This document shows positions 5,861 to 32,582 of a DNA stretch of 37,496 nucleotides, piece after piece. The stretch spans positions 1 through 37,496 of the forward strand of contig JANOTP010000283.1 in NCBI GenBank assembly GCA_031416415.1, written 5' to 3'. The position numbers and the translations under genes are program-made. Within the stretch, counting starts at the first letter, position 1. Each line of letters starts with the position of its first letter. The stretch is from Cytophagales bacterium (GTDB taxonomy: Bacteria > Bacteroidota > Bacteroidia > Cytophagales > Cytophagaceae). A model generated the notes under the pieces. It was not told the DNA's origin. It worked only from the letters and a program-made list of their open reading frames with translations, and did not search any database.

Positions 5861-6874
5861 ATGAAAACAGGAGTATTGCTGGTAAATTTGGGAACCCCCG
5901 ACAGCACAAAAACATCGGATGTACGAAAATATTTAAGAGAATTTTTAATGGATTGGAGAGTCATCGATATTCCTTTTTTAAACCGATGGATGCTAGTCAA
6001 TTTAATTATCGCTCCTTTTCGTGCTCCTAAGTCGGGTCATGAATACAAAAAACTTTGGCAAGAAAAAGGTTCTCCTTTAAAATTTTATGGTCTTGAATTA
6101 CAAGAGCTACTTCAAAATACACTAGGCAATGACTATGTAGTTGGTTTCGGTATGCGATACCAAAACCCCAGCCTTGAAAAAGCAGTGGAAATTTTTAAAG
6201 GTAAAAGTATTGAGAAACTTATTGTAATTCCTTTATATCCCCAATACGCCTCTGCTTCCACTGGATCTTCGATTGAAGAGGTGATGAAGGTAATCGGTCA
6301 ATGGCAAATTATTCCTGAGCTAAAAATTATTAGTAATTTTTGTGACAATCCTTTATTTATAAAAGCCTTTGCAGAACTAGGGAAAAAATACTTAGCGAAA
6401 GAATCCTACGATCACATTATCTTTTCTTATCACGGTATTCCTGAAAGGCAAATTATAAAAGGTTCTGAAAAAAACCAGTGCCAACTTGGAGACTGTTGTA
6501 AAAATTATCACGCAAAGAACAAGTATTGTTATCGAGCCCAATGTTTTGAAACCACAAGGCTATTAGTAAAAGAACTTGGTTTGTCTGAAAATGATTACAC
6601 GATTTCCTTTCAATCAAGACTCGGTAAAACGCCTTGGATTAAACCTTACACGGACCATAAAATTGAGGCGTTGGCGAAAGCGGGCAAAAAGAAAATTCTG
6701 TTTTTCTCACCTTCTTTTGTAGCGGACTGTTTGGAAACGACAATTGAAGGTGGCGAAGAATACAAAGAACTCTTTGAAGAAAATGGCGGTCAACACTGGC
6801 AATTGGTTGAAAGTTTAAACACGAATGCTGCTTGGGTAGAATGTTTGAAAAACATGGTTTTGGAAAAACAATAG
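5861..6874 (+). CDS. hemH: ferrochelatase
   Basis: MKTGVLLVNLGTPDS..VRKYLREFL.D.RVIDIP..; full-length 337 aa. Confidence 0.9.
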   Translation: MKTGVLLVNLGTPDSTKTSDVRKYLREFLMDWRVIDIPFLNRWMLVNLIIAPFRAPKSGHEYKKLWQEKGSPLKFYGLELQELLQNTLGNDYVVGFGMRYQNPSLEKAVEIFKGKSIEKLIVIPLYPQYASASTGSSIEEVMKVIGQWQIIPELKIISNFCDNPLFIKAFAELGKKYLAKESYDHIIFSYHGIPERQIIKGSEKNQCQLGDCCKNYHAKNKYCYRAQCFETTRLLVKELGLSENDYTISFQSRLGKTPWIKPYTDHKIEALAKAGKKKILFFSPSFVADCLETTIEGGEEYKELFEENGGQHWQLVESLNTNAAWVECLKNMVLEKQ

Positions 6875-9421: not shown

Positions 9422-9494
9422 GCGAAAGTAGCTCAGTTGGTAGAGCGCGACCTTGCCAAGGTCGAGGTCGCGGGTTCGAACCCCGTCTTTCGCT
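9422..9494 (+). tRNA. tRNA-Gly (anticodon GCC)
   Basis: Cloverleaf read by hand: GCGAAAG/CTTTCGC acceptor, D-arm GCTCAGTTGGTAGAGC, anticodon loop TTGCCAA, T-arm GCGGGTTCGAACCCCGT. Confidence 0.9.
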
Positions 9495-9608
9495 CAAAAG
9501 AAAGTTATTAGTTACAAGTTATTCGTTATTAGACTATTAAACTAAAAACAATAACGCTTAACTGATAACTTTTTTTAATGCTTCTCTGATAACGATTAGG
9601 AAGTAAAT

Positions 9609-9694
9609 GCCGGGATGGTGGAACTGGTAGACACGCAGGACTTAAAATCCTGTGACCCTTAAAGTCGTGCGGGTTCGATTCCCGCTCCTGGTAC
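9609..9694 (+). tRNA. tRNA-Leu (anticodon TAA), long variable arm
   Basis: GCCGGGA..TCCTGGT acceptor (two G-U pairs), anticodon arm CAGGA-CTTAAAA-TCCTG, variable hairpin, T-arm GCGGGTTCGATTCCCGC. Confidence 0.9.
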
Positions 9695-9831: not shown

Positions 9832-10602
9832 TTAAGCCCAAACCTCCTGTATCGTTTCTCTAAACAACGCATTCAACTTTTGTGTCTCTGGGTGTGTATC
9901 TAAAATCCCAGATTTCAAATACAAAGCAAAATAATCTAATTGCTCTACAATGAATTTTTGTAGCGGTTCTATTCTTTTTTCCAAGCCTAATTCTTGTCCA
10001 GATTTCTTTTTGGCCAACAATACTTCAAGTTCTTGTAAAATAGATTTTTCTTTTACGAGTTCGTTAACTAAAATATCAAATTCCATTGGAGGAAAGGTTC
10101 CAAATTTTTCTATCCAAGCACAACATAAAAGCGGCCGAAGTACATAGAAATATTTTTTAATGCGCACCTCTTCGTTTTGCAAATAGTCTTTGTAATTGCC
10201 AGAAGCCATATGGAAATAATGGTTCAGACAAGCCTTTGGATTAAAATATTCTGTAGACAAAACCCGCAACTTTTCTGCTGTTTTATATTCTTCATGGTAT
10301 ACAATAGGACTGCGCAGCCATTCCATTAATGGAGGGTTGGATTTCCTAAACAACTTCAGCGCCTTTCGCAATTCCCAACCACTCAAGTCCAATTCGTTGG
10401 GCAACATTTCTTCCATAGAATCTTTCTGCTCATCAATAGACATATACCATTCAGGGCGCTGCACATAAATAAACCGAACATCCCAATCGCTGTTCACCGA
10501 TTCAAACCCCCAAGCACGACTGCCACTTTCAACTGCAAAAAGGATTTTTATATCTTTTCGGTTTTCGAGGTTTTTTAATTCTGATTGTATGTGGGTTTTC
10601 AT
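9832..10602 (-). CDS. Pol-beta superfamily nucleotidyltransferase (COG3541/PF10127-like predicted NTase), intact copy
   Basis: N-terminal GS..D.D motif: ILFAVESGSRAWGFESVNSDWDVRFIY; 256 aa. Confidence 0.75.
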   Translation of the reverse strand: MKTHIQSELKNLENRKDIKILFAVESGSRAWGFESVNSDWDVRFIYVQRPEWYMSIDEQKDSMEEMLPNELDLSGWELRKALKLFRKSNPPLMEWLRSPIVYHEEYKTAEKLRVLSTEYFNPKACLNHYFHMASGNYKDYLQNEEVRIKKYFYVLRPLLCCAWIEKFGTFPPMEFDILVNELVKEKSILQELEVLLAKKKSGQELGLEKRIEPLQKFIVEQLDYFALYLKSGILDTHPETQKLNALFRETIQEVWA

Positions 10603-10620
10603 TGTTTCGTTGTCAATAAA

Positions 10621-10850
10621 TTAATTTGTCTCGTCCTAAAATAAGTATTTCGCCCTTGTTGGTGCTTTTCACCAACAAGCTGTTTCTACGCAGCACTAAT
10701 GCCCTTTTCGTAAATGATTTTTTTTAATTTCGATGTTAATTTGTCTCGTCCTAAAATAAGTATTTCGCCCTTGTTGGTGCTTTTCACCAACAAGCTGTTT
10801 CTACGCAGCGCTAATGCCCTTTTCGTAAATGATTTTTTTTAATTTCGATG
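10621..10850. repeat. 115-bp direct tandem duplication (2 units) covering the flank plus the left end of the MITE-like element
   Basis: Units 10621-10735 and 10736-10850 are near-identical (ttaatttgtctcgtcctaaaataagtatttcgcccttgttggtgcttttcaccaacaagctgtttctacgcagc.ctaatgccc..). Confidence 0.85.
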
Positions 10851-10978
10851 TTAACCACGACCTACCTATTTTGTCAGAAAGAATAAGTTGAGTTTTATAA
10901 ATATTAAAAGCAAATAGATTGGTTACTTTGGAGTCACGAGCAACGCTTGTTGGTGAAAAGCACCAACAAGGGCGAAAA
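10764..10978. mobile_element. MITE-like ~215-bp element, copy 1; terminal inverted repeats are themselves hairpins (TTCGCCCTTGTTGGTGCTTTTCACCAACAAGC ... GCTTGTTGGTGAAAAGCACCAACAAGGGCGAA)
   Basis: Left and right ends are exact reverse complements; each end contains a 10-bp stem CTTGTTGGTG/CACCAACAAG; no ORF; second copy at 12918-13133. Confidence 0.6.
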
Positions 10979-10983
10979 TCGCT

Positions 10984-11259
10984 TTATAAATTATTATAGG
11001 TATTACTTTTAATTCTAAATGTAACTATTTGTTCTGCCCAAGAAATCTTTTCGGAAAAAGATTCATTTTCAAATTCAAAGTATTTTCTCTGAATTAGCTT
11101 TCCAATGTTTTCCGAAAGAATCCAATTTATGAGTTCTTTTGAATGCTCTGTCTTATCATAAAACCCTCTTATTTTATTCCTTTCAAAAAGCGCTATTTCT
11201 TCATTAACTATAAAGTTTGACAAATGTTTAATTGAAGCTTTAGATTCTGTAACCTCCAA
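10984..11259 (-). CDS. hypothetical small protein (91 aa)
   Basis: ORF only. Confidence 0.4.
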   Translation of the reverse strand: MEVTESKASIKHLSNFIVNEEIALFERNKIRGFYDKTEHSKELINWILSENIGKLIQRKYFEFENESFSEKISWAEQIVTFRIKSNTYNNL

Positions 11260-11729
11260 AGAATCAACAAATCATTAAATATAGGATAGAAATGAGCTAT
11301 TACTGCAAAATAATTCTGGAATTCGGATGCTGCTTTTTCACTTTCATCATATAACATACTTTCCCAAAGAACAATCATATATTCTTGAACCAGTTTTTGC
11401 TCCTCTTCCTTCCAATTTTTCCAACCTGCTAAGGAGAGTTTTTCAAATGCAATCCAAATTTCATAAGGACTTCTAAGTTCTGCTATAAGTTCGAATATTC
11501 TAGGCAAAAAATGTTTGTAATCCAATTCGTTGCCCCATGTCGTAATTGCTTTGCCTGTAAAACGCGATAAATCTTCGTCCGACAAATCTTTAAGTGATTT
11601 AGAAAACAATTCTTGATTCCATTTTTCCAAATCTCCATATAACGGACTTCCACTCATAGACAAATTACTATGATACTTTTCAAAGGTTTCATATAATTGA
11701 GCTATAATCTTTTCTATTTTGGAAGTCAT
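11208..11729 (-). CDS. hypothetical protein; probable start at MTSKIEKII (track ORF extends to 11768)
   Basis: ORF; the internal start removes the overlap with the upstream gene. Confidence 0.45.
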   Translation of the reverse strand: MTSKIEKIIAQLYETFEKYHSNLSMSGSPLYGDLEKWNQELFSKSLKDLSDEDLSRFTGKAITTWGNELDYKHFLPRIFELIAELRSPYEIWIAFEKLSLAGWKNWKEEEQKLVQEYMIVLWESMLYDESEKAASEFQNYFAVIAHFYPIFNDLLILWRLQNLKLQLNICQTL

Positions 11730-11752
11730 TATTAATATTGTATTGATATAGT

Positions 11753-12214
11753 TTAGGAAGGCAACCAACCTAATTCAAATTCTTTGATATAATTTTTTAG
11801 TTCTTCAACTCTGTTTATCCCATCTAAATCCATGCAAATTATTTTTAGGTTACCATGGTCTGCTGTCTCTGGTAAACAAGTTGCAAAAAAGCATTGCCAA
11901 AAAGTATCGGCTAATTTTTCATCATTGTGCCAAGTGGTCATTACTTCAATTTCATTATGATTTTCCATTGTCTCCATAACTACAATATTTTCGTCAAAAA
12001 GGTCATGAAGTTTTTCTCCGAATTGTCCGTGTCCTTTAAATTCTAAAATGTTTCTTGAAATTGATGTTCTTACAAACTTGTCAAACCTATTTGAATCAGG
12101 TTTATCGTTAGCAATTGCAAGACAAACCCAGTCATTATCGGGAAGTTCGTCCTCAAAGTTATTATAGTCTAACCAAAAAACCATTCTGTTAAAATATTTT
12201 CCTATTGGTATCAT
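11753..12214 (-). CDS. hypothetical protein (153 aa), acidic, immunity-protein-like size
   Basis: ORF only. Confidence 0.5.
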   Translation of the reverse strand: MIPIGKYFNRMVFWLDYNNFEDELPDNDWVCLAIANDKPDSNRFDKFVRTSISRNILEFKGHGQFGEKLHDLFDENIVVMETMENHNEIEVMTTWHNDEKLADTFWQCFFATCLPETADHGNLKIICMDLDGINRVEELKNYIKEFELGWLPS

Positions 12215-12466
12215 AATCTTCTTTTAAAATGCTACAATAAGGTTTAGAGCATTGCGTTCGGATGGGTTTCAAAGCAAAAATTGATAATAAGCGTTAAACT
12301 TGAATATAGAGATATAAGTTTACAAACAATCCCACCTGAAACAAAACCCGTGTTTTGTTCAGTTATTTTTTCCCTCTGACTCTTTAATTTTTTCAATTAT
12401 ATCAAGCCATGTAAGATTCTTTTCTAGAAATTTACCATATTCATCTAATAGAACTAATAATTTTAT

Positions 12467-12826
12467 TCAAATAAAGGTCAATCCATATCCAAGTTTCCAT
12501 ATTACTAATTGATCATTTACATATGGATCATTCCAAAGTGTTTTTAGTTTTTCTTGAATAATGCTTTCTTTCATTTCGTCAATTCCTTCAGCTAGTTTAA
12601 CTGTATCTCTCATTTGAATTTCTTTCATTTTATAAAGGTTTTCTCTAGCAAGTTTATCAATGATTATTGTAAAATTCTCCTCAAAATCTATAATTGCCTC
12701 AAGCTGTTCTTTTATATGTTCGATTTCGAATGGTTCTGATGTATGTGCTGCAATATTCCTTAATTTCCTATTAACGTTGAGTGCGCTATAAAATTTCGAG
12801 TCAATAAGTCGAAATGCATAAAGCAA
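12467..12826 (-). CDS. hypothetical protein (119 aa)
   Basis: ORF only. Confidence 0.45.
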   Translation of the reverse strand: MLYAFRLIDSKFYSALNVNRKLRNIAAHTSEPFEIEHIKEQLEAIIDFEENFTIIIDKLARENLYKMKEIQMRDTVKLAEGIDEMKESIIQEKLKTLWNDPYVNDQLVIWKLGYGLTFI

Positions 12827-12917
12827 TTCTATCTTACTTGATAGAGAACTTAATGTTCCTGGATAATCTAATAATTTGTTTTTATATCTTTTAGACTCAT
12901 CAGGTAGAATTAATTAT

Positions 12918-13133
12918 TTCGCACTTGTTGGTGCTTTTCACCAACAAGCTGTGTCTACGCAGCGCTAATGCCCTTTTCGTAAATGATTTTTTCTAATTTC
13001 GATTTTAACCACGACCTACCATTTTTGTCAGAAAGAATAAGTTGAGTTTTATAAATGTTGAAAGCGATTAGATTGGTTACTTTGAAGTAACGAGCAACGC
13101 TTGTTGGTGAAAAGCACCAACAAGGGCGAAAAA
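12918..13133. mobile_element. MITE-like element, copy 2 (one mismatch in the left TIR: GCAC instead of GCCC)
   Basis: ~90% identical to copy 1 across its full length, including both hairpin TIRs. Confidence 0.6.
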
Positions 13134-13136
13134 ACC

Positions 13137-13230
13137 CCCAAGCTCGGCTCCCACTTTCTACAGCATAAAGAATTTTTATATCTTTGCGGTTTTCGAGGTT
13201 TTTTAATTCTGATTGTATATGGGCTTTCAT
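13137..13230 (-). pseudogene. truncated 5' fragment (~31 codons) of a second copy of the nucleotidyltransferase gene, abutting the MITE-like element
   Basis: 13141-13233 is ~85% identical to 10508-10602 (MKAHIQSELKNLENRKDIKILYAVESGSRAWGF vs MKTHIQSELKNLENRKDIKILFAVESGSRAWGF). Homology stops exactly at the element's right end, and the 91-aa track ORF simply reads on into the repeat. Confidence 0.6.
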
Positions 13231-13349
13231 CGTTTCATATTAAATAATTAAAACCGTCTTTATACAAACCTCCAAGGTTTTGAAAACCTTGGAAGTTTCG
13301 TTGTTAACGATTCCAGCATGTCAGTTGAAAACAGCATCCAAGGAGCGAG

Positions 13350-14024
13350 CTAATAGCTAATTTTTAGAAGTTTGTCATTAACAATATATTTAATTTCGCC
13401 TGTTCCAATAATTCTAGAACCTTCTCTAAACTCAAACTCCATTCCTTCTTTCAAGCAACCCGCAAAATAGTCTGGTGATAACATTTTTATTTTTGCCTCA
13501 ACAGTGTCACCAGAGAAAACGGTTTCTTTACCAATAAAAGTTTGCTGGCCGGATGTCTGCATTTCCGTAAAATCAAACTTTAATTGTGGTCTGTATCCAT
13601 TGATTGCTGGTGTTTTTCTTCCCCCTTGTTCTGTTGTCAAGTATTGCAGTTTTGCAATAAAGTCAACCATTTTAAACTCTTCATTATAATAGCTCATAAC
13701 GCTATCAATTATTTTATCGAAGTCTGCTTGGTTACAAAATCTTATTGACGTGTCTAGAAGTTCCATTATTGAACTTCCCGCTTCTAATTGCCATGCGTTT
13801 TGTCCATTAAATTTTTTAGCATCAATTTTTTCAATTGTTAATGGCGTGCCAAAATATTCCTTTAGTTCTCTTATAAAATCTAGAATTTCTATTTGGTTAA
13901 AAGTTGGCCAATCATTCATTGCATCCAAAAACAGCGTTGCAATTTCTTTTAACTTATGTTCTTTAGTATCAATTTCAACTAACGTCCTTAGTGTCGAATT
14001 TGTTATGATATTATTACTGTCCAT
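13350..14024 (-). CDS. fusion protein: unknown N-terminal domain + C-terminal EF-Tu domain-3-like beta-barrel
   Basis: C-terminus KLQYLTTEQGGRKTPAINGYRPQLKFDFTEMQTSG...SGDTVEAKIKML..EFEFREGSRIIGTGEI aligns motif-for-motif with EF-Tu domain 3 (VYVLSKEEGGRHTPFFxGYRPQFYFRTTDVTG...PGDNxxMxVxLI..RFAIREGGRTVGAGVV). Confidence 0.65.
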   Translation of the reverse strand: MDSNNIITNSTLRTLVEIDTKEHKLKEIATLFLDAMNDWPTFNQIEILDFIRELKEYFGTPLTIEKIDAKKFNGQNAWQLEAGSSIMELLDTSIRFCNQADFDKIIDSVMSYYNEEFKMVDFIAKLQYLTTEQGGRKTPAINGYRPQLKFDFTEMQTSGQQTFIGKETVFSGDTVEAKIKMLSPDYFAGCLKEGMEFEFREGSRIIGTGEIKYIVNDKLLKISY

Positions 14025-14127
14025 TGTCTATGCCTCCTGATTATATTTGTATATGAGGAACTTATCAATCATCCCCTTCTTTGGTCTTTGGCGCCCGAAC
14101 TTTAGGTATTAGCCAGAAAAAGGACTA

Positions 14128-14487
14128 TTACGAAAGACCCTTCTGCGACGAAAGAATTGCTATAATGTGCTCAAGAAGATGAATGAATGTCGATTTTTCA
14201 AATAAGTTATTTAATCTGTCAGAAACAATGGTCTTCTCAACTACATTATTAAGTTTCCTAATAGCTCCCTCCAAATCCTCCACCAATTTAGTCCTGTCTA
14301 AATCCTTGCTTGCTGTTATAATGTCGATTGGCTCAAATGAAAAAGCCCCTATGCCGCAGCATTCCGCCATGCAAGATACTTCGAGTTTACCGAGGAAGTC
14401 GAAAGAAGTATTCAAAAGAACATCAACATCGAATAAATTTTTATCCGATGTATCCGGTTCTATCCATATAAAATTGTATTGTTCCAT
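14128..14487 (-). CDS. hypothetical protein (119 aa) with a CMAECCGIG Cys cluster
   Basis: ORF only. Confidence 0.45.
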   Translation of the reverse strand: MEQYNFIWIEPDTSDKNLFDVDVLLNTSFDFLGKLEVSCMAECCGIGAFSFEPIDIITASKDLDRTKLVEDLEGAIRKLNNVVEKTIVSDRLNNLFEKSTFIHLLEHIIAILSSQKGLS

Positions 14488-14612
14488 AGTTTCATTTTAT
14501 AAATAGTATTTTCAATCAAAATTGTAATCAAGCAATTTTTCAAAACCCTAGTATACCCTCTAACTATTTTACCTCCATAAGCGTAGTTTTTCCTATCAAA
14601 AACCACCTAATT

Positions 14613-14646
14613 AAACCACCAAGGCTTTTAATACCCTTGGTGGTTT
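14613..14646 (-). terminator. hairpin AAACCACCAAGG-N10-CCTTGGTGGTTT downstream of rtcB (probable terminator; a related copy lies at 13272-13292)
   Basis: Perfect 12-bp stem 19 nt after the rtcB stop; T5 follows ~11 nt later on the minus strand. Confidence 0.5.
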
Positions 14647-14664
14647 AATTTATCTACGAAGAAC

Positions 14665-16089
14665 CTAATCCTCCCTACTCCCATCATCGGCCATTCTTAC
14701 CATCTTCGGAATAAATTTCGCTACTACTTCGACCAAATCCGTTTGGGCTGCCATCACGGTATGGATATCTTTGTAGGCTCTTGGGGCTTCGTCTAGGCCG
14801 CCTCCAATAAGCGTTACGCCATGATCTTTCAATACCGATTTCATTTCTTCTGAGGTAATTGTTTTCTCGGCCATCGTTCTGCTCATTTGTCTCCCTGCAC
14901 CGTGCGAGGCGGAGTTCAAGGCATTTTCAACACCTTTTCCTCTTACTAGAAATCCTGGAGCAGTCATAGAACCTGGAATAATTCCCATCACGCCTTTGGC
15001 TGCTGGGGTTGCTCCTTTTCTATGAACAATCACTTCTTCGCCAAGATAGAGTTCTTTCCAAGCAAAATTATGATGGTTCTCCACTTTCGCCAATACTTGC
15101 GCACCAATTGCTTTCGTAAGTTTTTCGTGAATCACTTGATGACAAGCCGAAGCATATTCTCCTGCCAAATTCATGGCCATCCAATATTCCATTCCCTCTG
15201 CACTGTTCAAATCCATATAAGCCAATTGAGCCGCTTCTCTTGGGAGTGGACAAAGTTGTTTTGCCAATTTTGTATAATGCCCTGCGATCATAGCACCCAT
15301 TCCTCTAGAGCCCGAGTGTGTCAGCAAGGCCAAATATTTTCCTTTCGGAATATTCAATTCGACATCCGCTTTTTCTAATTCTATAATCCCCCATTCCACA
15401 AAGTGATTTCCTCCACCTGAAGAACCCAATTGCGAATAGGCTTTATCCTTCAAGGCTTTCACCATTGGATTGATTTTGAACACTTCATTTTCCAACACTT
15501 CATGATCTGCTTTGTATTGTCCATGAAACCCATGACCCGCACCAAATTTTGTATGGGCAATCAATTCTCTTTTATACTTACTTTCATTTTCAAGAAAATG
15601 ATCTGCAGAGATATCGTAGATGGACAAACACATTCTGCAACCGATATCAACACCCACACCATAAGGAATAATCGCATTTCTTGTGGCCAACACGCCACCA
15701 ATTGGAAGTCCATATCCTTGGTGCGCATCGGGCATCAAAGCTCCTGCCACTGAAACAGGCAGGCGAACGGCCATGTTCATTTGTTTTAATGCACCTTCTT
15801 CAATAAAGTCTGCTCCGTAAATTTTATAGGGTGCTGGCTCCTCTTTCAATTCAATTATTTTTTCTATTGTTCTTTCTGCTATCAGCGCTTCCGCTAAATT
15901 TTTCAATTGTGCGTTTTCTAAATAACCTTCTGGAGCCTCCACTACTTTTGACAAGATGCTTAGAATTTCTTCCTTGGAATTTTCATTACCCAATTCTACC
16001 GAGGCCTCCAAAGCTATTGCCATCACTGACGTTTGTGGGTATCCAAGTGAAATAAGTTCTGTTCCTGATATGGTTATTGTATTCATCAT
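14665..16089 (-). CDS. rtcB: RtcB family RNA 3'-phosphate/2',3'-cyclic phosphate ligase (tRNA-splicing ligase family), ~85-aa N-terminal extension
   Basis: ..LMPDAHQGYGLPIGGVLAT..GVGVDIGCRMC.. and the remaining RtcB His/Cys metal-site blocks (..NHHNF..); 474 aa. Confidence 0.9.
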   Translation of the reverse strand: MMNTITISGTELISLGYPQTSVMAIALEASVELGNENSKEEILSILSKVVEAPEGYLENAQLKNLAEALIAERTIEKIIELKEEPAPYKIYGADFIEEGALKQMNMAVRLPVSVAGALMPDAHQGYGLPIGGVLATRNAIIPYGVGVDIGCRMCLSIYDISADHFLENESKYKRELIAHTKFGAGHGFHGQYKADHEVLENEVFKINPMVKALKDKAYSQLGSSGGGNHFVEWGIIELEKADVELNIPKGKYLALLTHSGSRGMGAMIAGHYTKLAKQLCPLPREAAQLAYMDLNSAEGMEYWMAMNLAGEYASACHQVIHEKLTKAIGAQVLAKVENHHNFAWKELYLGEEVIVHRKGATPAAKGVMGIIPGSMTAPGFLVRGKGVENALNSASHGAGRQMSRTMAEKTITSEEMKSVLKDHGVTLIGGGLDEAPRAYKDIHTVMAAQTDLVEVVAKFIPKMVRMADDGSRED

Positions 16090-16142
16090 TTCGTTTTTAA
16101 ATTTACTTAAATTTTTAATCTAAGACTTTCTTTTTGCACTAA

Positions 16143-16200
16143 ATACTCAGGGCTAACTACTAACCCTCAGTAACCCCGATGGGATTCGAACCCATATTTC
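16143..16200 (-). ncRNA. candidate structured RNA element just upstream of rtcB: canonical tRNA T-arm (ATGGG-TTCGAAT-CCCAT) + acceptor-like CGGGGTT + 7-bp hairpin CTGAGGG-N11-CCCTCAG
   Basis: Exact T-loop consensus GTTCGAATC on the rtcB strand; cannot be folded into a full cloverleaf; GC-elevated ORF-free stretch 16090-16461. Confidence 0.3.
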
Positions 16201-16382
16201 TGCTGAAGCAGACAGCGGGCTGTAAATACGCTTCCCTACTTTTGTTTCCAATTTCGGTGCAACTGTAAACTTTGCTCGTTAGTCCGCGCAGGTCTAACGA
16301 GATAATCCACGCACTCCACGGTTCCGATTTTACCGCAGCTTTTCCTTTTAAGCTACAGGGTCAATTGTTGTCGTTTTAACAC

Positions 16383-16404
16383 CGCAGGCATCGGCCTGCG
16401 GTGG
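16383..16404 (-). other. GC-rich hairpin CCGCAGGC-CGAT-GCCTGCGG between the SPFH stop and the tRNA-like element (possible terminator or processing site)
   Basis: Perfect 8-bp GC stem; A8/T8 run 10 nt away. Confidence 0.35.
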
Positions 16405-16461
16405 TTGCTAACTTTTTTTTAATCTTTAACTAACTACTAATTACTCAGGACTCAATACTAT

Positions 16462-17565
16462 TTACTTCTTCTCAGGTACAAACAATTGTTTCAATTGCTC
16501 CACCACTTGAGAGTTTCCTCCCAATGAAATACTGTTGATTTTTTCCGCGATTTTCTCTACGTACTCCATCTCTTTCAATTTGAACAGCATTGCGTTATCT
16601 TCCATCAATTTTGCAGTGTTCAGCAAACTTCTGGTCGAAGCAGTTTCCTCTCTTCGCATGATGGTATTGGCTTGCGCTTTTTTCTCGGCTACCAACACTT
16701 GGTTCATAATTTCTTTCACATCGCCTGGCAATATGATGTCTTTTATCCCGCAAGCACTCAACGCAACACCCATTCCCTCCGCTTTTTCTTTTACCGCTTC
16801 CAAAATAATTGGCGCTACCGATTCTTTTCGGTCCAACAATTCATCGAGCGTCAACGAGCCAATGACGGCACGAATAGAAAGCTGAATAAGGGTATACAAT
16901 TGTTTCTCATAGTCCTTATTTTCAAGCAATGCTTTTTCAATATCCGAAACTTTGTATTGTGCATGGAAATTTAATCGTATCGCTGCTTTGTCTTTTGTAA
17001 GCAATTCTTGTCCAGAAATTTCCATGGACACCAATCGTGTATCGGCTTTCAACACCGTCATCACAACTGGATTTTTCCAGAAATAATACACCCCAGGACC
17101 AAGCATTCGTTCGAATTTTCCTTCTACAAATAACAAACCTTTCTCATAAGACTCTACCACATAAACGCGCACGTAGTTTAGAATTTCTTTTCTTACCAAC
17201 GTAAGTTTATCAATCGCTTCAGTAATTTCTGGTTTGCTAATATCGGCGATTACGAATTCGTGTTTAATCACACCGTTCCAAAACGCATAGCGTCCAGCAG
17301 TAAGCACATTTTTGAAAACACCGTTTTCATAATGCAAGGCAAGTTCGTTGTCTTTCACTTCAACTGAATTCAATAAGGCTGCTAATGCTTCGTCTTTCAA
17401 GAGAATACCAAGGTCAAAAGGAGCTTGGAAGGCTTTTGTCATATCGTATTCCAAAACAGATTCGTTTGGTAGCACCCAAAAAACTCCGTTGGTAATTACT
17501 CTATTATAAGCACCATTTTTAACTACTAATCCTACTGTGTAGGCATTCACTCTTTTACGTAACAT
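16462..17565 (-). CDS. SPFH/band-7 (stomatin/prohibitin-like) domain protein
   Basis: 367 aa; band-7-like core with a C-terminal coiled region ..KEIMNQVLVAEKKAQANTIMRREETA.. Confidence 0.65.
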   Translation of the reverse strand: MLRKRVNAYTVGLVVKNGAYNRVITNGVFWVLPNESVLEYDMTKAFQAPFDLGILLKDEALAALLNSVEVKDNELALHYENGVFKNVLTAGRYAFWNGVIKHEFVIADISKPEITEAIDKLTLVRKEILNYVRVYVVESYEKGLLFVEGKFERMLGPGVYYFWKNPVVMTVLKADTRLVSMEISGQELLTKDKAAIRLNFHAQYKVSDIEKALLENKDYEKQLYTLIQLSIRAVIGSLTLDELLDRKESVAPIILEAVKEKAEGMGVALSACGIKDIILPGDVKEIMNQVLVAEKKAQANTIMRREETASTRSLLNTAKLMEDNAMLFKLKEMEYVEKIAEKINSISLGGNSQVVEQLKQLFVPEKK

Positions 17566-17902
17566 ACTTGTATAATTTAATTTTTAAAACTTTTATTCTT
17601 TTTAATAAAACAAAGCGAAACAATTCTTCCACTTTCGAGGAGCATGATTTTAGCAAAAACGCTAGAACTGGTTTTTATAACGATACTTCTCTCTGGTCTA
17701 TCTCTTCCCTCCTTAGCGTTACAGGAGGGAAGAAGCGGCTTTCTGAAGTTTCCTTTTTATAAAAAGCAGGCCTTTTTATTGTTGCGGTATCCACTATACT
17801 TCAAACGATTGCAGAATTGTTTTTTGTCCGAAGACCAAACCGAACTGCTTTCGCTTTGTTTTTTCAGGTACACCTTTTTAAAGAAGTGGTGCGCTTCGGA
17901 AT

Positions 17903-17985
17903 ATGGAGTGTTAGTCCATAGTCTGCTACTCTACCAACTGAGTTATCCTGTCTCTCGACACGAGTGGGATTCGAACCCACGACCC
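17903..17985 (-). ncRNA. candidate ncRNA module: circularly permuted tRNA-like structure (T-arm, then acceptor stem capped by a GAGA tetraloop, then D-arm, then anticodon-like hairpin), Y-RNA (YrlA)-like tRNA mimic
   Basis: Minus strand 5'-GTGGGTTCGAATCCCAC-TCGTGTC-GAGA-GACAGGA-TA-ACTCAGTTGGTAGAGT-AGCAGACT-ATGGACTAACACTCCAT-3'; TCGTGTC/GACAGGA pair 6 of 7 bp; lies in an 850-nt ORF-free stretch. Confidence 0.35.
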
Positions 17986-18252
17986 ACAGGGTGGTGAACA
18001 ACCTTTCACTTACACAAGCAGCATACAATTTTTACATCGCACTACTGGGCTATTCAGAAACCCAAATCCGGTCTTGGCAAACTACTCGCTGTCCGCGCTT
18101 TCTTGTCTTTCGACAAGGAAGATCTTTTGCTCCCCAACTGGCGAACGGAATATTTTCAATGAATGATTTATCTTATTTAATCCTATCATTCAATCAGCTA
18201 AATCATTGTAAAGAACGTTTTCTTTTTGTTGACGATTCAAAATAACAAGGCC

Positions 18253-18273
18253 AGTACGCAGACTATTTGCGTA
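18253..18273. promoter_or_regulatory. operator-like imperfect palindrome gTACGCAgaCTATTTGCGTAg, upstream of the WYL regulator
   Basis: Shares the 12-mer CTATTTGCGTAG (reverse complement CTACGCAAATAG) with the site at 18353-18373. Confidence 0.4.
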
Positions 18274-18352
18274 GTAAAAAACTAATTTAAAATAACTTAT
18301 AATTATTTGACTAACAATTAAATAAATTGAAAAATAAATACACAAATTTTTT

Positions 18353-18373
18353 CTACGCAAATAGATTGCGTAG
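18353..18373. promoter_or_regulatory. operator-like palindrome CTACGCAAATAGATTGCGTAG, 42 nt upstream of the WYL regulator start
   Basis: 8-bp perfect arms CTACGCAA/TTGCGTAG; second member of the pair 100 bp from the first. Confidence 0.4.
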
Positions 18374-18414
18374 TTCGACTTTTCTTTTGATCTTGTTCTG
18401 CTAAAATAAAGCTT

Positions 18415-19425
18415 ATGCCGATAAATAAACAAGCGCTCATTCGTTACAAAGTCATTGACCAATGTTTACAAAACCGACAACGCAAATGGTCTTTGGAAGA
18501 TCTAGTGGAAGCCTGCTCTGAAGCGCTCTATGAATTTGAGGGTATAAAGAAAGGAGTAAGTTTACGCACCGTGCAACTAGATATACAAACCATGCGCAGT
18601 GAAAAGCTTGGCTACAATGCTCCGATTATAGTAGTAGAGAAAAAATATTATTCTTACGAAGACAAAAATTACAGCATTTCAAAAATTCCACTCTCCAAAC
18701 AAGACTTAGGAATGCTTACAGAAGTGGTAGGACTTTTGAAACAATTGAAAGGACTAAATTATTTTGAAGAAATGAGTGGCATGATTGCCAAGTTGGAAGA
18801 CAAAGTAATAACACAAAAAACTCAAGGCCGATCAACGATTGATTTTGAAAAAAACGAATTGTTGAAAGGGCTTGAGTTTATAGATCCTTTGCACAAAGCC
18901 ATTTTAAATGAAACGACCGTTCAAATTACCTATCAATCCTTCAAAGCACGCAACGCATCTGATGTTATTTTTTACCCCTATCTATTAAAGGAATACAGAA
19001 ATCGATGGTTTGTTTTTGGGATGACTAGAAGGGGCAAAGCCTTACAAAACCTTGCCCTCGACCGTATCGTGGAAGTGCACGAATTGCCAAACATAACGCC
19101 AGACCCACCAACTGCAGAGATTGAAAATTATTATGCAGACGTTATAGGCGTTACCAAATCACTGGGTCAAAAAGCTTCTACGGTGGTGTTGAGTGTAGAC
19201 AAAGCTACTATTCCTTATGTTCTAACAAAACCACTTCATGCTTCGCAAACCATTTTAAAAGAACCAACCGAAGAAGGGCATACATTGATAAGTATAAATG
19301 TTGTTTTAAACTTTGAATTGGAAAGGGAGATTTTGGGTTTTGGAGAAAAGGTAAAAGTTTTAGCGCCTAGGATTTTAGTGAAGAGTATTAAGAAACGGTT
19401 GGAAGAGGCGGTTGGAAAGTATTAG
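18415..19425 (+). CDS. WYL-domain transcriptional regulator (HTH-WYL-WCX architecture)
   Basis: N-terminal HTH (ALIRYKVIDQCLQN); central WYL signature FYPYLLKEYRNRWFVFG; 336 aa, typical length. Confidence 0.75.
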   Translation: MPINKQALIRYKVIDQCLQNRQRKWSLEDLVEACSEALYEFEGIKKGVSLRTVQLDIQTMRSEKLGYNAPIIVVEKKYYSYEDKNYSISKIPLSKQDLGMLTEVVGLLKQLKGLNYFEEMSGMIAKLEDKVITQKTQGRSTIDFEKNELLKGLEFIDPLHKAILNETTVQITYQSFKARNASDVIFYPYLLKEYRNRWFVFGMTRRGKALQNLALDRIVEVHELPNITPDPPTAEIENYYADVIGVTKSLGQKASTVVLSVDKATIPYVLTKPLHASQTILKEPTEEGHTLISINVVLNFELEREILGFGEKVKVLAPRILVKSIKKRLEEAVGKY

Positions 19426-28402: not shown

Positions 28403-28789
28403 ATGAAAAAAGAAAAAATATTTTACTGGACCGCAACAATCTTTATATTCTTATTTGAAGGAGTAATGCCTGCTCTTACTTCACATACCGAAATGGCAAA
28501 AGAAGGAGTTAGGCATCTTGGATATCCCGATTATTTTAGTACAATGTTAATGGTATTTAAAGTAGTAGGTACATTAGCACTGCTTATCCCTCAAGTGCCA
28601 AAGAGAGTTAAGGAGTGGGCTTATGCTGGCTTTGCTATAGATTTCATTGCTGCCGCAGTAAGCCACTGTGTAGTGGATGGTTTTACAATTTTAAGTTTTT
28701 TCCCTCTTGTTATCTTTGCTATTCTGATTGTATCTTATATTTACTATCACAAATTACAAGCGGCGAATGGACTAAAAAGTGTCTCTTAA
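28403..28789 (+). CDS. DoxX-like small membrane protein
   Basis: 128 aa, 4 predicted TM helices, DoxX-like pattern. Confidence 0.5.
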   Translation: MKKEKIFYWTATIFIFLFEGVMPALTSHTEMAKEGVRHLGYPDYFSTMLMVFKVVGTLALLIPQVPKRVKEWAYAGFAIDFIAAAVSHCVVDGFTILSFFPLVIFAILIVSYIYYHKLQAANGLKSVS

Positions 28790-28869
28790 TAAAATACCTG
28801 TAGTATGCTTTATAGATGGCTTTTCAAAAAAGTCATCTATAAAGTATTTTTATAAATTTTTACAGTTGA

Positions 28870-29259
28870 TTAGTTATTATAAGACTCAACCTGAACTTGT
28901 TCAATTTTGTGTTTAATAAGTTCTTCAAATAATATAATAGATTCTTGCATGTCTTCGTCACCTTTTTCAAAATACCAAACAATAGAAAGTTGGCTATTTG
29001 ATTTATTTAGGAGCACAAGTGACTCTAAAAGGTCAAGAAGATATTTGGCACTGGCAGTATTAAAATATTTTAACTTAACAGACAAGGTGGTTTTTGTCGA
29101 TGGACTTAGCAAGTAGCCTTCTATCCAGCTTTTAAGAATCTGATAAATAGGTTTAGGATCTTCTTCGCATGAAACGCCAAATATATGCAGAATTCCTTCT
29201 GGTGAAAATTTTACACCTACTGATTTAGAGGTGCTTGGAATTATTTCTAAAAGGTCCAT
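28870..29259 (-). CDS. DUF1987 (SiaC-like) protein
   Basis: 129 aa; ..LKYFNTASAKYLLDLLESL.. and C-terminal ..WYFEKGDEDMQE.. match the DUF1987/SiaC signature. Confidence 0.55.
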   Translation of the reverse strand: MDLLEIIPSTSKSVGVKFSPEGILHIFGVSCEEDPKPIYQILKSWIEGYLLSPSTKTTLSVKLKYFNTASAKYLLDLLESLVLLNKSNSQLSIVWYFEKGDEDMQESIILFEELIKHKIEQVQVESYNN

Positions 29260-29516
29260 TCTATAAATTAGTTATTCCTAAATGTAAATAAATAACAACG
29301 AAATACAATTCATTTTTTTTGAAAAGCAACGTGTCTTATTGTTAAAGACATTTGTTTTTGGTTTAGATCAAGTACTTACAACAGTAGTTTTTTCACTAAA
29401 CAAATATGGTTTTTTATCTTTATCTTTATCAAAACTACCTTACAAAACAGTCAAGATTGATACTACTTTCAATGGCTTTACAAAAAACGGTTTTTGTTTC
29501 TTAACTTACTGAGTAG

Positions 29517-30347
29517 ATGTATTCAATAATAGACATAGAAACAACTGGTGGCCGGCTTGAAACGGATCGCATCACAGAGATTGCAATTGTAGTGCACGAT
29601 GGTAAGAAAGTGGTTAATTCATATAGTACGCTTATTAATCCTGAATGTTCTATTCCCTATTCCATTACAAGACTTACGGGCATTAGTAATGAGATGGTTC
29701 GTAATGCGCCAAAATTTTTTGAAGTAGCTAAAAATATTCTTGAATTAATAAAGGGAACAACCTTTGTTGCGCATAATGTACGTTTTGATTATAGTTTTGT
29801 GAAAGAAGCATATAAAACCTTAGGGTATGACTTTAATTCAGAAATGCTTTGTACTGTGCGTTTAAGTAGATATACCTTTCCTGGGTTGGCCTCTTATAGC
29901 TTAGGTAAATTATGTGCAAGTTTAGGAATTCGTGCTGAGAATAGTCACAGAGCAATGGGAGATGCACAAGCAACAGTACTACTTTTTGATAGAATTCTTT
30001 CTCAAAATCCTTTATTACTTGAAAAAAAGCTACTAGAGAAAAAGGTAAATTTAATAGCGATTCCTCCTTTATTAGAAAAATCAGTTTATGAAACTATTCC
30101 CGAAGGAAAAATTGGTGTATATTATTTTCATGATTGTTCAGGAGAAGTTATTTATATAGGGAAGAGTAAGGATATAAAAAAACGTATTATGCAGCATTTT
30201 GCGCTCAATGGAAAAAAGTCTACTCTGTCTACTATTCCTAAAGCTGAAATTGCTGATATAAGTATTTTAGAAACAGAAAGTGAACTCATCGCCGTCATGG
30301 TAGAATCCGATGAAATTAAAAAATTGCGCCCAAAATATAATAGTTAG
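29517..30347 (+). CDS. DnaQ-like 3'-5' exonuclease domain fused to a C-terminal GIY-YIG nuclease domain
   Basis: Exo I motif IIDIETTG, ..HNVRFDYSF.., ..HRAMGDAQAT..; C-terminal GVYYFHDCSGEVIYIGKSKDIKKRIMQH = GIY-YIG. Confidence 0.75.
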   Translation: MYSIIDIETTGGRLETDRITEIAIVVHDGKKVVNSYSTLINPECSIPYSITRLTGISNEMVRNAPKFFEVAKNILELIKGTTFVAHNVRFDYSFVKEAYKTLGYDFNSEMLCTVRLSRYTFPGLASYSLGKLCASLGIRAENSHRAMGDAQATVLLFDRILSQNPLLLEKKLLEKKVNLIAIPPLLEKSVYETIPEGKIGVYYFHDCSGEVIYIGKSKDIKKRIMQHFALNGKKSTLSTIPKAEIADISILETESELIAVMVESDEIKKLRPKYNS

Positions 30348-30358
30348 TCTGAAGAAAT

Positions 30359-31180
30359 TTATTTTACAAAGCCTTTATTGATGGCATAGGTAACAAGTTC
30401 TGCTGTATTTTTTTTGTCTGATTTCCCCAACATATTCTGACGATGTGTATTCACCGTATTTTCACTTATAAATAAAAGTTGTGCTATTTCACTACTAGAC
30501 TTTCCCTTACAAAGTAGTTGAAGTATTTCAAGCTCTCTTTTTGTAAAAGAAAAATTTTGTTCTAAAGAACTAAAGCTAGCAGCGTATTCATGCTGATAAA
30601 TATTGTTCTCGTCTTTTTTTGCTACTATAAAATCTACGTCTGTATCTTTTTTTACATGTGTGACATCTGACATAAAAAGTAGAGTAAGCAACGGAAAACC
30701 TTCTTCATCTATTTCGATAACATTTAGCTGTTGCATGAACCAAACAATAGACTTGTCTTTTTTTACAAATTGAAAAGTAGCCGTAAACCTGAATTTCTTA
30801 ATTTCTTTATTAGTCGAATGTTTTTTGAAATGTTCAAATAGAACTGGGAAGATTTGATTGTTATATATTTCAGCATGTTTGGGAAGAAAAGTAGACAATA
30901 CATTTGCCATGCCATTAGGCCCTTCAACAAGAGTTGAACTATAGCCGGTAATAGCTTCAAAATTGTCACTTAAAAATTCATAACCCATGTTTACATTATT
31001 GAATACTCCAACTATAGCGGGAGAATGTTTTAGCAATTCATTGAATTGTGGATTTTCAAATAATTCAAATTTTTTAGATTCAGAACGATGTTTTTCAAAA
31101 TAACTTTCAGGGATAAATTTTTCAACTGTTTCAAGAAAGTGATTGTAGAAATTTTCTGGATCTTTATTGATTTTTGTCAT
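30359..31180 (-). CDS. LuxR-family transcriptional regulator with N-terminal sensory (PAS-like) region
   Basis: C-terminal HTH ..TKRELEILQLLCKGKSSSEIAQLLFISENTVNTHRQNM.. Confidence 0.7.
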   Translation of the reverse strand: MTKINKDPENFYNHFLETVEKFIPESYFEKHRSESKKFELFENPQFNELLKHSPAIVGVFNNVNMGYEFLSDNFEAITGYSSTLVEGPNGMANVLSTFLPKHAEIYNNQIFPVLFEHFKKHSTNKEIKKFRFTATFQFVKKDKSIVWFMQQLNVIEIDEEGFPLLTLLFMSDVTHVKKDTDVDFIVAKKDENNIYQHEYAASFSSLEQNFSFTKRELEILQLLCKGKSSSEIAQLLFISENTVNTHRQNMLGKSDKKNTAELVTYAINKGFVK

Positions 31181-31515
31181 TTCTGAGAGAAAATAAGTTA
31201 TTGGAGGTAACTAAAACCGATCTAAATATACTGAAATATCACTATGTTTTCCCGAGCATTTAAATGTTAATATTGTACTATAATCTCTCAATCAGCATAT
31301 TTTTATTATTATTAATTATAAACCGCTGAAATTCTTTGTCTTTTGAAGACGCGACTGACTATCCCCCTATCACACAAAAAATAACCTGATTTCTGTTTTG
31401 ACACACTTTTTTAATTTAGTTACTTCTGGTGATTTGTAATTTTTCAATAATACATAGAATTAATTAAGCTATTTTATTACTTTAGTAACTTATATATTAA
31501 ACCATTATCAAACAC

Positions 31516-32490
31516 ATGAAAAAAATATTTTATCTCTTGGCTTCCATAGTGATGTCTGGATTTCTGATCTCTTGTGGAGGTGGGGCTGATAAAGCTACAC
31601 TACTTTCAGATTCTACAAGTGTAGATACTACAACTAAAGTTCTTAAAGACAACGGGAATGGATTATTTGCCTTAGTAATTAACGATCTATATTTTGAAAT
31701 CGACGCTACAAATGCTGGTCGTATTAGTGCGTTTTCTTTAGGTGGCAAAAATATATTAAGTGGCAAAAATATTAATGCCACCAATTGGGGAACATCACTT
31801 TGGCCAAGCCCACAGAGTGCTTGGGGATGGCCACCTTCAAAAGAATTAGATGTAAAACCTTACAAAATAAGCAATCGTTCTGACAATTTGATAGAAGTGG
31901 AATCTGAAAAAGATTCTCTTTTAGGTTTCGTTTTCAAAAAACAGTATAGCGCAATCTTGATCGATTCTTCTGTCGTGGTTACCTATACAATCATAAATAA
32001 ATCAGATAAAAAACAGTCCGTAGCTCCGTGGGAAATAAGCCGTGTAGCTTCTGGTGGGCTTACGCTATACCCTACAGGTAAGGGAGCAAAACAAAATCTA
32101 CTTTCAAAACTTATGGTTGACGAAGACGGTATAACTTGGTTTGATTATGATTCCTCAAAAATGAATTTCAAACCTAGCGATGTACCTAAACTAATACATG
32201 ACGGTGCAGAAGGCTGGATGGCTCAAGTAAGTGGAGACATCGTGTTAATAAAATCATTTGCAGATGTAACACCAGAAAAAACTGCTCCCGGTGAAGGGGA
32301 AATTGAATTTTATGCAAATCCAGACAAATCTTATATTGAAATAGAACAACAGGGAGAATATACTGCACTTGAGCCAGGTAAGGAATTGCAGTGGCAAGTT
32401 AAATGGTATTTAAGAAAACTTCCTGCAGGTATAAAAGCTGAAATTGGAAACAAAGAGTTAGCAGCCTTTATTCGAGCAACTATAAAATAA
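31516..32490 (+). CDS. hypothetical lipoprotein (324 aa)
   Basis: Lipobox LISCGGG. Confidence 0.55.
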   Translation: MKKIFYLLASIVMSGFLISCGGGADKATLLSDSTSVDTTTKVLKDNGNGLFALVINDLYFEIDATNAGRISAFSLGGKNILSGKNINATNWGTSLWPSPQSAWGWPPSKELDVKPYKISNRSDNLIEVESEKDSLLGFVFKKQYSAILIDSSVVVTYTIINKSDKKQSVAPWEISRVASGGLTLYPTGKGAKQNLLSKLMVDEDGITWFDYDSSKMNFKPSDVPKLIHDGAEGWMAQVSGDIVLIKSFADVTPEKTAPGEGEIEFYANPDKSYIEIEQQGEYTALEPGKELQWQVKWYLRKLPAGIKAEIGNKELAAFIRATIK

Positions 32491-32506
32491 AAATTAAAAA
32501 AAATCT

Positions 32507-32545
32507 AAGCCCACAAGATGAATTTTCTTGTGGGCTTTTTTGTTT
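32507..32545 (+). terminator. rho-independent terminator AAGCCCACAAG-N10-CTTGTGGGCTT + T6
   Basis: Seen in sequence. Confidence 0.7.
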
Positions 32546-32582
32546 TAGGCCTTATTCATTTATATTTAACAAAACGTTTTCT

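Follow-up and report, generated by a model that had tools for sequence, protein, structure and literature searches.

Here, we report on a stretch of DNA of 37,496 nucleotides (nt) from a Cytophagales bacterium of the Bacteroidota (contig JANOTP010000283.1; hereafter the window), in which the gene for the RNA ligase RtcB follows that for a Band-7/SPFH protein and a WYL-domain regulator is encoded divergently from the two. We conclude that the locus is probably a Bacteroidota RNA-repair module made up of the Band-7 protein, tRNA-like RNAs and RtcB, with the nucleotidyltransferase RlaP as a further component, in which WYL takes the place of RtcR and a particle of SPFH protein and RNA would aid the ligase. 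Comparison with related loci establishes, at the level of sequence, the identity of the genes and their synteny, two conserved structured RNAs that resemble tRNA, and a conserved palindromic site.

The operon is encoded on the minus strand. The Band_7/SPFH protein of 367 amino acids (aa) (16462-17565; Pfam Band_7 E=2.1e-35) precedes an RtcB of 474 aa (14665-16089; Pfam RtcB E=3e-82 over residues 105-464), and a WYL-WCX transcription regulator of 336 aa is read divergently on the plus strand (18415-19425; Pfam WYL 7.7e-12, WCX 6.3e-11). RlaP is encoded on the minus strand at 9832-10602 (Pfam RlaP 1.1e-90). The 849-nt spacer between WYL and Band-7 (17566-18414) holds an RNA that we call 'up', with a G+C of 0.435 within the RNA, and the 372-nt spacer between Band-7 and rtcB (16090-16461) has a G+C of 0.41, rising to 0.48 in the core of a second RNA that we call 'mid'; the window as a whole has 0.344. 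A preliminary description, made from the sequence, had placed rtcB, the SPFH gene, the divergent WYL gene, two GC-rich non-coding stretches and two palindromes here, and all of these lie at the coordinates claimed. It had also called the two stretches free of open reading frames (ORFs). They are non-coding, although mechanically called ORFs of 90-117 aa overlap the upstream one; these were rejected as genes, since tblastn in related loci gave short partial matches only and nothing of full length. Among the ORFs of the window that were scanned (all but about a dozen of less than 400 aa in its right-hand third, at 28403-33242 and 35611-37430), none was found to encode TROVE/Rsr, RtcR, RtcA or archease, in line with the earlier claim that neither Rsr/TROVE nor RtcR is encoded nearby.

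We then compared the window with 80 loci from distinct species, designated by L numbers and anchored on the Band-7 protein (57-66% identity in Band-7). This protein belongs to a large and well-conserved Bacteroidota family, annotated as "slipin" by the sources. In about 55 of the 80 loci, Band-7 is followed by RtcB on the same strand; a WYL homologue (47-63% identity) lies upstream of Band-7 and divergent from it in 30, and RlaP is close to RtcB in about a dozen. Closer relatives (72-79% identity) have WYL, a divergent gap of 0.9-1.3 kb, and then Band-7, RtcB and RlaP in that order. When retrieval was anchored on WYL instead (13 metagenomic loci), RtcB, RlaP, Band-7 or tRNA clusters again adjoined the regulator, and rtcB was directly divergent from it in L085-L087 and L089. 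Among cultured organisms, Chryseolinea serpens DSM 24574 (L011) carries WYL, both RNAs, Band-7, RtcB and the candidate operator, and the Band-7/RNA core is found in Chitinophaga pinensis, C. filiformis, Pseudochryseolinea flava, Fulvivirga marina and Roseivirga seohaensis. A TROVE/Rsr gene occurs in only one of the 80 loci (L013, 7333-8844), with a place between Band-7 and RtcB; one operon can thus hold both Band-7 and Rsr. The ORFs of about 430-500 aa that follow Band-7 in L040 and L024 were considered as diverged TROVE genes and rejected, as they do not encode TROVE proteins. No relatives of the Band-7 protein were found in viral contigs, and there is thus no sign that the system is phage-borne.

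The element most closely tied to Band-7 is the 'up' RNA, a composite structured RNA of about 416 nt on the minus strand (17750-18165, both ends approximate). The stretch that holds it is conserved at the DNA level in about 55 loci (nhmmer), and at least 73 of the 80 have a T-arm motif at a distance of 300-620 nt upstream of Band-7; three of the loci without this motif carry a tRNA-Tyr-like gene directly upstream of Band-7 instead. Given this upstream motif in 73 of 80 loci, the pairing of RNA and Band-7 is the tightest linkage in the system, and as a pattern of sequence conservation it fits an RNA-protein partnership. All 74 sequences, aligned over 200 nt with MAFFT, gave too many gaps for RNAalifold, and the RNA was therefore analysed by domain. 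The 5' domain (18019-18121) folds into three hairpins (18121-18098, 18067-18044 and 18044-18019), with compensatory changes in 17 of 24 pairs among 23 sequences (RNAalifold).

Next to this domain in the 'up' RNA is a permuted tRNA module (17923-17989, minus strand) that resembles the Rfam YrlA family and has the order T-arm (17980-17964), closed acceptor hairpin (17963-17946) and D-arm (17945-17927), held together by a 4-bp closing stem, CTGT/GCAG. In 67 sequences, the paired share of cells is 95.6%, compared with 74.3% in shuffles, and 298 cells are compensatory against 80; none of 500 shuffles reached the observed values, and slid controls gave 43-49% pairing. The YrlA model (RF02553) scores the window module at 36.4 bits (E=2e-5), short of its gathering score of 69, and five relatives at 29-37 bits, the relatives over model positions 23-88 of 114 only. 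The match to tmRNA (RF00023) is confined to the T-loop, at 16 bits. Thus, the circularly permuted tRNA-like module that had been claimed for the 849-nt stretch is present, and its tRNA-like segments are conserved with covariation in distant relatives. The likeness to Y RNA holds in part: the RNA has YrlA's tRNA-like domain, but the flanking model positions, including the terminal stem, are unmatched in relatives, and in the window the terminal stems of the YrlA alignment contain mismatches. In YrlA, the Rsr-binding element consists of the terminal stem and the 5' motif GNCGAAN0-1G (PMC4201824). This motif is present in the window as the loop of hairpin 1 (GTCGAAAG) and is not conserved in relatives. 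A further mark of YrlA, an Rsr/TROVE gene on the same strand within 4 kb, is likewise missing among the scanned ORFs of the window.

The module is followed by a mimic of an anticodon arm (17903-17919, minus strand), with a 5-bp stem ATGGA/TCCAT and a 7-nt loop CUAACAC. This hairpin is found in 64 of 71 loci; loop position 2 is U in 58 of the 64 and position 6 a purine in 59, and the middle triplet takes 31 different values. An H-type pseudoknot comes next (17871-17897, minus strand), formed by the hairpin GAAG-CGCACCA-CTTC, an A-rich linker and a GGTG that pairs with CACC of the loop. Complementarity of at least 4 nt between the loop and a segment located 5-9 nt downstream is seen in 87% of 71 loci, with 43 distinct paired segments, whereas cross-pairing of unrelated loops gives 20%. 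The end of the 3' domain is marked by a conserved GGATACCG (17792-17785, minus strand), and terminator-like hairpins stand between the RNA and Band-7 in only 26 of 74 loci. Most relatives (50 of 71) have a second module of T-arm, acceptor and D-arm, and the anticodon arm follows its D-arm after one nucleotide, which makes the second module a complete permuted tRNA. There the Rfam tRNA model passes its gathering score in L007, L045 and L079. The window and its relative L082 have a single module plus the anticodon arm. A further motif, GTTCTTTGAA, occurs just downstream of the putative -7 box of the operon (GTTCTTTACA in the window, 18196-18215) and is aligned in L082, L006, L007, L011, L045 and L031. 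It lies between the tRNA-Tyr-like gene and the composite RNA in other loci, and the window has about 40 extra nt after it. This motif could be a processing site or a part of the promoter.

The second RNA, 'mid', comprises 193 nt on the minus strand (16170-16362) and consists of a tRNA skeleton with a structured insertion of about 125 nt. A 7-bp acceptor stem is stacked on the T-arm (ATGGG-TTCGAAT-CCCAT, 16195-16179), the D-arm has a GG dinucleotide, and the anticodon position is occupied by a 4-bp stem with a loop of 11-19 nt; the insertion lies in the variable region and contains invariant unpaired blocks. The canonical T-arm that had been noticed in the 372-nt GC-elevated stretch is part of a larger conserved RNA. 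We found 'mid' in 13 of 82 sequences searched, namely the window, ten loci by nhmmer and two more by covariance model. Of its 43 pairs, 29 show compensatory changes (RNAalifold, 11 sequences), and 95.3% of cells are paired in the same 11 sequences, against 77.1% in shuffles and 35-46% in slid controls. Seeds score 170-214 bits with its covariance model. Ordinary array tRNAs score 15-32 bits and align to the whole model by skipping the insertion, which confirms the tRNA skeleton. With the canonical tRNA model (RF00005), 'mid' scores 17.1 bits, below the threshold of 29, and ARAGORN makes no call. Its site varies among loci between the Band-7-rtcB spacer, a position just upstream of 'up' and the head of a tRNA array.

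Standard searches otherwise returned little from the two spacers. ARAGORN called neither tRNA nor tmRNA in them, and Rfam at gathering scores gave no match in either spacer and ordinary tRNAs only across the window and 11 loci. At E-values up to 10 over the region, Rfam added to YrlA, the tRNA model and the tmRNA T-loop only chance hairpin matches (psRNA14, mir-3012 and others). The Bacteroidota motif Pedo-repair (RF01715), considered as a lead, gave no match in the region in this Rfam search.

The divergent gap also contains two copies of the palindrome TACGCA-N7-TGCGTA, one about 43 nt upstream of the WYL start codon (18354-18372) and the other (18255-18273) with its centre about 25 nt upstream of a conserved TTTG. 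This TTTG is invariant in a four-way alignment, and we infer it to be the Bacteroidetes -7 box of the operon promoter; the putative Bacteroidetes-type -7 element of the unit formed by the RNA, Band-7 and rtcB reads TTATTTTG (18238-18245, minus strand). A scan for sigma-70 promoters and terminators was uninformative, as expected given the Bacteroidota host. The degenerate form YRCGCA-N7-TGCGYR has just these two matches in the 37.5-kb window, against 0.00 expected by chance. A palindrome about 40 nt from the WYL start occurs in 22 of 29 WYL-bearing loci, and a second one about 100 bp from the first is found in the window and its nearest relatives (L006, L007, L079 and L082). In L092 the palindrome flanks rlaP beside WYL, and in L084 it flanks a cluster of tRNA genes (Gln-Lys-Phe-Asp-Asn). 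L087 and L089 have it twice, once between WYL and rtcB and again, at a distance of 5 kb, about 150 nt upstream of the unit formed by the tRNA-like RNA and Band-7. With two separate units marked in these loci, the palindrome behaves like the operator of a small regulon, and the sequence comparison supports the two copies in the window as the predicted operator of the WYL regulator. The divergent WYL gene and the two related palindromes of the preliminary description were thus both recovered, and the palindromes prove to be conserved next to WYL homologues. In L005 (3369-5111, minus strand), the WYL-WCX frame runs into a C-terminal PhyH-type dioxygenase domain, giving 580 aa, which could be a real fusion or an artefact of ORF calling.

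The Band-7 protein has no transmembrane segment by hydropathy (maximum over 19 residues, 1.29). In its AlphaFold (AF2) model, an SPFH alpha/beta domain is joined by three beta units at the N terminus and by a helix of 65 residues, and among solved folds it comes closest in Foldseek to stomatin, HflK/C, prohibitin, QmcA, erlin and flotillin, which are all ring- or cage-forming. Sequence and predicted model agree on a protein without a membrane anchor that is built, like the SPFH proteins which form rings or cages, from an SPFH domain plus a long helix, and a soluble oligomer can reasonably be inferred from them. A likeness to the major vault protein, which the build of beta-repeats, SPFH domain and helix had brought to mind, was rejected because that protein lies outside the 50 best Foldseek matches.

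RtcB and RlaP are recognised as partners, and the RlaP of the window is 64% identical to the one encoded directly after RtcB in L082. In the window, about 4 kb of small ORFs (10603-14664) separates rtcB from this orthologous rlaP. These ORFs encode a DUF6331 protein, a protein resembling EF-Tu domain 3, a 5' fragment of rlaP, a DUF7684 protein and two proteins without a family. The 5' end of rlaP is duplicated here: about 120 nt (10480-10602) recur around 13132-13230, with 87% identity over 121 nt. Upstream sequence also recurs, as an inverted copy of 40 nt and a direct copy of 59 nt. Directly 3' of the rtcB stop, a near-perfect 17-bp hairpin followed by GGUGGUUUUUG (14609-14650, minus strand), which was the source of the spurious psRNA14 and mir-3012 matches, is likely a terminator, judging from its sequence. 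The EF-Tu-domain-3-like, DUF6331 and DUF7684 proteins were rejected as parts of the system, since none of the 80 related loci carries them or any other of the inserted ORFs; this and the hairpin after the rtcB stop indicate that the inserted ORFs are an insertion outside the system. Of the tRNA-centred theme proposed earlier, the nucleotidyltransferase stands, RlaP being a genuine operon partner, but the EF-Tu-domain-3-like protein belongs to the non-syntenic insertion and drops out. RtcB itself has an N-terminal extension of about 100 residues beyond the Pfam domain (residues 1-104) without a significant family match. The tblastn matches of RtcB in related loci cover almost its full length, which suggests that relatives have retained the extension.

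Many related loci are also rich in tRNA genes. Of the first 60 loci scanned, about 20 have same-strand arrays of 10-20 tRNA genes, placed 2-4 kb upstream of Band-7 and in some cases downstream of it (for example, L013 1332-2564, L023 643-2180, L029 457-2023, L031 4396-8664 and L060 4280-8635); no array lies near the operon in the window. A tRNA-Tyr(GUA)-like gene is often found directly 5' of the composite RNA, and in L017, L019 and L020 it stands 5' of Band-7 itself (5887-5971, about 5885-5970 and 5887-5971, respectively; others are at L002 5302-5387 and L014 5250-5335). Instead of the usual U8, these genes read CG at positions 8-9; their D-stem has 5 bp, and their acceptor stem is followed by AC rather than CCA, oddities that are common to the tRNA-Tyr genes of the arrays and are missing from a distant tRNA-Tyr gene in L010. 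This tRNA-Tyr-like gene is probably the "b7a-tRNA"; it is absent from the window. In about 31-35 loci, mostly of Chitinophagaceae, an AAA ATPase (about 358 aa) and a PF04308 RNase-H-like protein (about 161 aa) are encoded as a same-strand pair between the tRNA array and the Band-7-associated RNA (for example, L035 4358-5434 and L070 4882-5367). The pair is absent from the window. Two ordinary tRNA genes, tRNA-Gly(GCC) at 9422-9495 and tRNA-Leu(UAA) at 9609-9694, lie on the plus strand of the window, convergent with rlaP, and look like housekeeping genes.

Taken as an RNA-repair module, the locus could work as follows. The WYL protein would bind both palindromes, one over its own promoter and the other over the -33 region of the operon promoter. 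A nucleic-acid damage product bound by the WYL domain would change the activity of the regulator, and transcription would then yield the RNA of about 416 nt, the SPFH protein, the 193-nt RNA and RtcB. The SPFH protein is envisaged to oligomerise and to bind the tRNA-mimic RNAs, as Ro60 does with Y RNA, and the resulting ribonucleoprotein may recruit or present broken tRNA or rRNA to RtcB, and to RlaP where present, for healing of the ends and ligation. The sequence-based tests set out in the preliminary description, on the conservation of the tRNA-like segments and the synteny of WYL with rtcB in other genomes, were all run, and its idea survived each. What it had drawn, a WYL-controlled RNA-repair operon with Y-RNA-like tRNA mimics, stands with regard to the RtcB operon, the conserved mimics, the lack of a nearby Rsr gene and the divergent WYL gene, but only the tRNA-like domain is common to these RNAs and YrlA.

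Several observations weigh against our preferred interpretation. The WYL protein is only weakly similar to solved WYL proteins (E about 0.003), and its N-terminal HTH is below significance, with a faint HTH_11 match at E=0.12. The confidence of the Band-7 model is moderate (pLDDT 74, pTM 0.46). No RtcB is encoded within 6 kb of Band-7 in 25 of the 80 loci, some of which are on contigs that end early, and the pair of RNA and Band-7 may therefore have a role independent of RtcB. The terminator-like hairpins, present in a minority of loci, leave it unclear from sequence whether 'up' is a separate transcript or a processed leader. Binding of the SPFH protein to RNA or to RtcB is a proposal, and WYL may act as a repressor or as an activator.

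A competing view is that the tRNA-mimic RNAs, chiefly through the anticodon arm, bait anticodon nucleases or ribotoxins, soaking up the toxin or yielding, once cut, a signal that switches WYL, and that RtcB reseals both the bait and the tRNAs. The kept U at loop position 2 and purine at position 6 around 31 triplets in 64 loci would be expected if shape rather than decoding matters, or if the triplet diversifies under conflict; however, unconstrained drift of the triplet yields equal variability. The same-strand arrays of 10-20 tRNA genes in related loci and the palindrome that flanks the tRNA cluster of L084 favour such a role, and similar ideas have been put forward for YrlA as a possible competitive inhibitor of an anticodon nuclease (Hughes et al., PMC7790460) and for array tRNAs as possible sponges (Santamaria-Gomez et al., PMC8421152). 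Yet YrlA of Salmonella was uncleaved where tRNAs were cleaved (PMC7790460), the window RNA has lost the second tRNA-like module, which carries the anticodon arm in most relatives, and the tightest tie of the RNA, to the SPFH protein, is left unexplained. On balance we hold a decoy or sensor role to be rather unlikely, while giving it more weight than any other alternative. It can also be merged with the particle: a cage-like assembly of SPFH protein and RNA would be the bait and sensor for anticodon nucleases, the anticodon-arm mimic with its genome-specific triplet would be what toxins meet, and a cleaved mimic would be the ligand of WYL, switching on rtcB, rlaP, the particle and, often, a back-up array of 10-20 tRNAs. 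This combination appears doubtful to us.

It seems improbable that the tRNA-like elements act only in cis, as signals for processing or stability of the mRNA (through cuts by RNase P and RNase Z) or as an attenuator before Band-7 and rtcB. Such a role would suit the place of the RNAs, on the coding strand within the 5' leader and the spacer between the cistrons. It would also agree with the terminator-like hairpins seen after the upstream RNA in 26 of 74 loci and with YrlA of Mycobacterium smegmatis, which is cut by RNase P and receives CCA (PMC4201824). However, a pseudoknot, an anticodon-arm mimic and invariant unpaired blocks in an RNA of 400 nt go far beyond what a processing signal needs, and 'mid' is placed differently between loci, like an independent gene. 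The second module, which has all arms of a tRNA in permuted order with the anticodon arm one nucleotide after the D-arm, raises the thought of a permuted pre-tRNA, matured by RtcB, which would seal its ends within the variable region, and by RNase P and RNase Z, which would open the closed acceptor loop. The passing Rfam tRNA scores in L007, L045 and L079 and the ligase encoded in the same operon agree with this. Neither cleavage sites nor bulge-helix-bulge motifs were identified, however, many of the "anticodons" are normally unused ones (for example, AAC, AAA and ACG), the window RNA lacks module 2, and the conserved flanking domains would be unexplained. Permuted tRNA genes exist in red algae, and the analogy to these is all that the idea would rest on; we consider it highly improbable. 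Finally, the silence of ARAGORN in both stretches and the tRNA arrays of related loci might point to decayed, functionless remnants of a former tRNA array. The covariation data contradict this: every helix is kept by compensatory changes, in 67 and 11 sequences, and the parts foreign to tRNA (the 5' hairpins, the pseudoknot and the 125-nt insertion) are conserved as well, so that decay can be regarded as practically excluded.

The RNA-repair module that we favour bears on two questions still under debate, the substrates of bacterial RtcB and the roles of Y-RNA-like tRNA mimics. To our knowledge, the Band-7 branch of RtcB systems has been a computational prediction only since 2016. That prediction now takes concrete form, with two RNAs whose structures and approximate ends are described, a candidate operator, a regulator and a soluble SPFH protein. 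We know of no work that connects a soluble SPFH protein of this kind with RNA. If binding of RNA by the SPFH protein is true, a family known for organising membranes would gain a cytoplasmic, RNA-centred role parallel to that of Ro60 and Y RNA.

Among known regulators, PafBC, DriD, BrxR and CapW are of the (w)HTH-WYL-WCX type, are encoded divergently from stress or defence genes and have a palindrome in the shared intergenic region; the ligand of DriD and PafBC is single-stranded DNA. The window shares with them the WYL-WCX build, the divergent gene and the intergenic palindrome, and differs in its predicted target, an RNA-repair and tRNA regulon. It also departs from RtcR-controlled rtcBA operons, as neither RtcR nor RtcA is among its scanned ORFs. 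The rsr-yrlBA-rtcBA operon of Salmonella resembles the window in the permuted tRNA core (T-arm, closed acceptor stem, D-arm) of YrlA (RF02553), an RNA whose gene lies immediately upstream of rtcB in the same orientation (Chen et al., 2014, PMC4201824), and in inducible expression, which has been shown in Salmonella and is presumed for the window operon. In contrast, WYL replaces the CARF-sigma54 activator RtcR in the window, TROVE is limited to one of 80 loci, no RtcA was found among the scanned ORFs, and the window RNA falls below the 69-bit gathering score of YrlA, with the terminal-stem positions unmatched in relatives.

In the RtcR-controlled rtc locus of Pseudomonas aeruginosa, the SPFH gene PaFlo8 lies inside the locus (PMC13086221) and RlaP is also encoded (PMC12776372). 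Both loci thus bring an SPFH gene, rtcB and rlaP into one RNA-repair locus; RtcR control and RtcA are found there, and WYL in the window. A parallel on the scale of a regulon comes from Anabaena PCC 7120, where rtcB, a slipin operon, an AAA ATPase gene and a long tRNA array are all under one repressor, TrcR, and respond to translational stress (PMC10272220, PMC8421152). The same gene families are clustered physically in the Bacteroidota loci, and a short DNA motif marks several promoters in both. However, the genes are dispersed in Anabaena, a tRNA-mimic RNA was not reported there, and TrcR is a ribbon-helix-helix protein that acts on direct repeats, unlike WYL with its palindrome. By analogy, the linkage to tRNA arrays and the Anabaena stress regulon suggest a widespread response that would "replace and repair the tRNA pool".

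The closest relative of the system is the association that Burroughs and Aravind predicted in 2016 between RtcB, Band-7 and a "band-7-associated tRNA", with YrlA occasionally adjacent to Band-7, as recounted in a 2018 preprint (10.1101/312249). The module is therefore not undescribed, as it had first been called: in the terms of that preprint, the core association is known as a prediction, and the window is a variant of it with WYL in place of RtcR. RtcB, an adjacent Band-7 gene on the same strand and a tRNA-like RNA beside Band-7 are all present in the window, and RlaP is a frequent partner in the predicted system. The window differs from the system as outlined there in that its RNA is a composite of about 416 nt, not a simple tRNA look-alike, and in having the 193-nt RNA between Band-7 and rtcB and a WYL protein with a candidate operator. 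Set against that account, the following appear to be additions to the predicted system: a WYL regulator with its operator, the composite build of the Band-7-associated RNA, an anticodon-arm mimic that varies between loci, the RNA of 193 nt, and the linkage to tRNA arrays.

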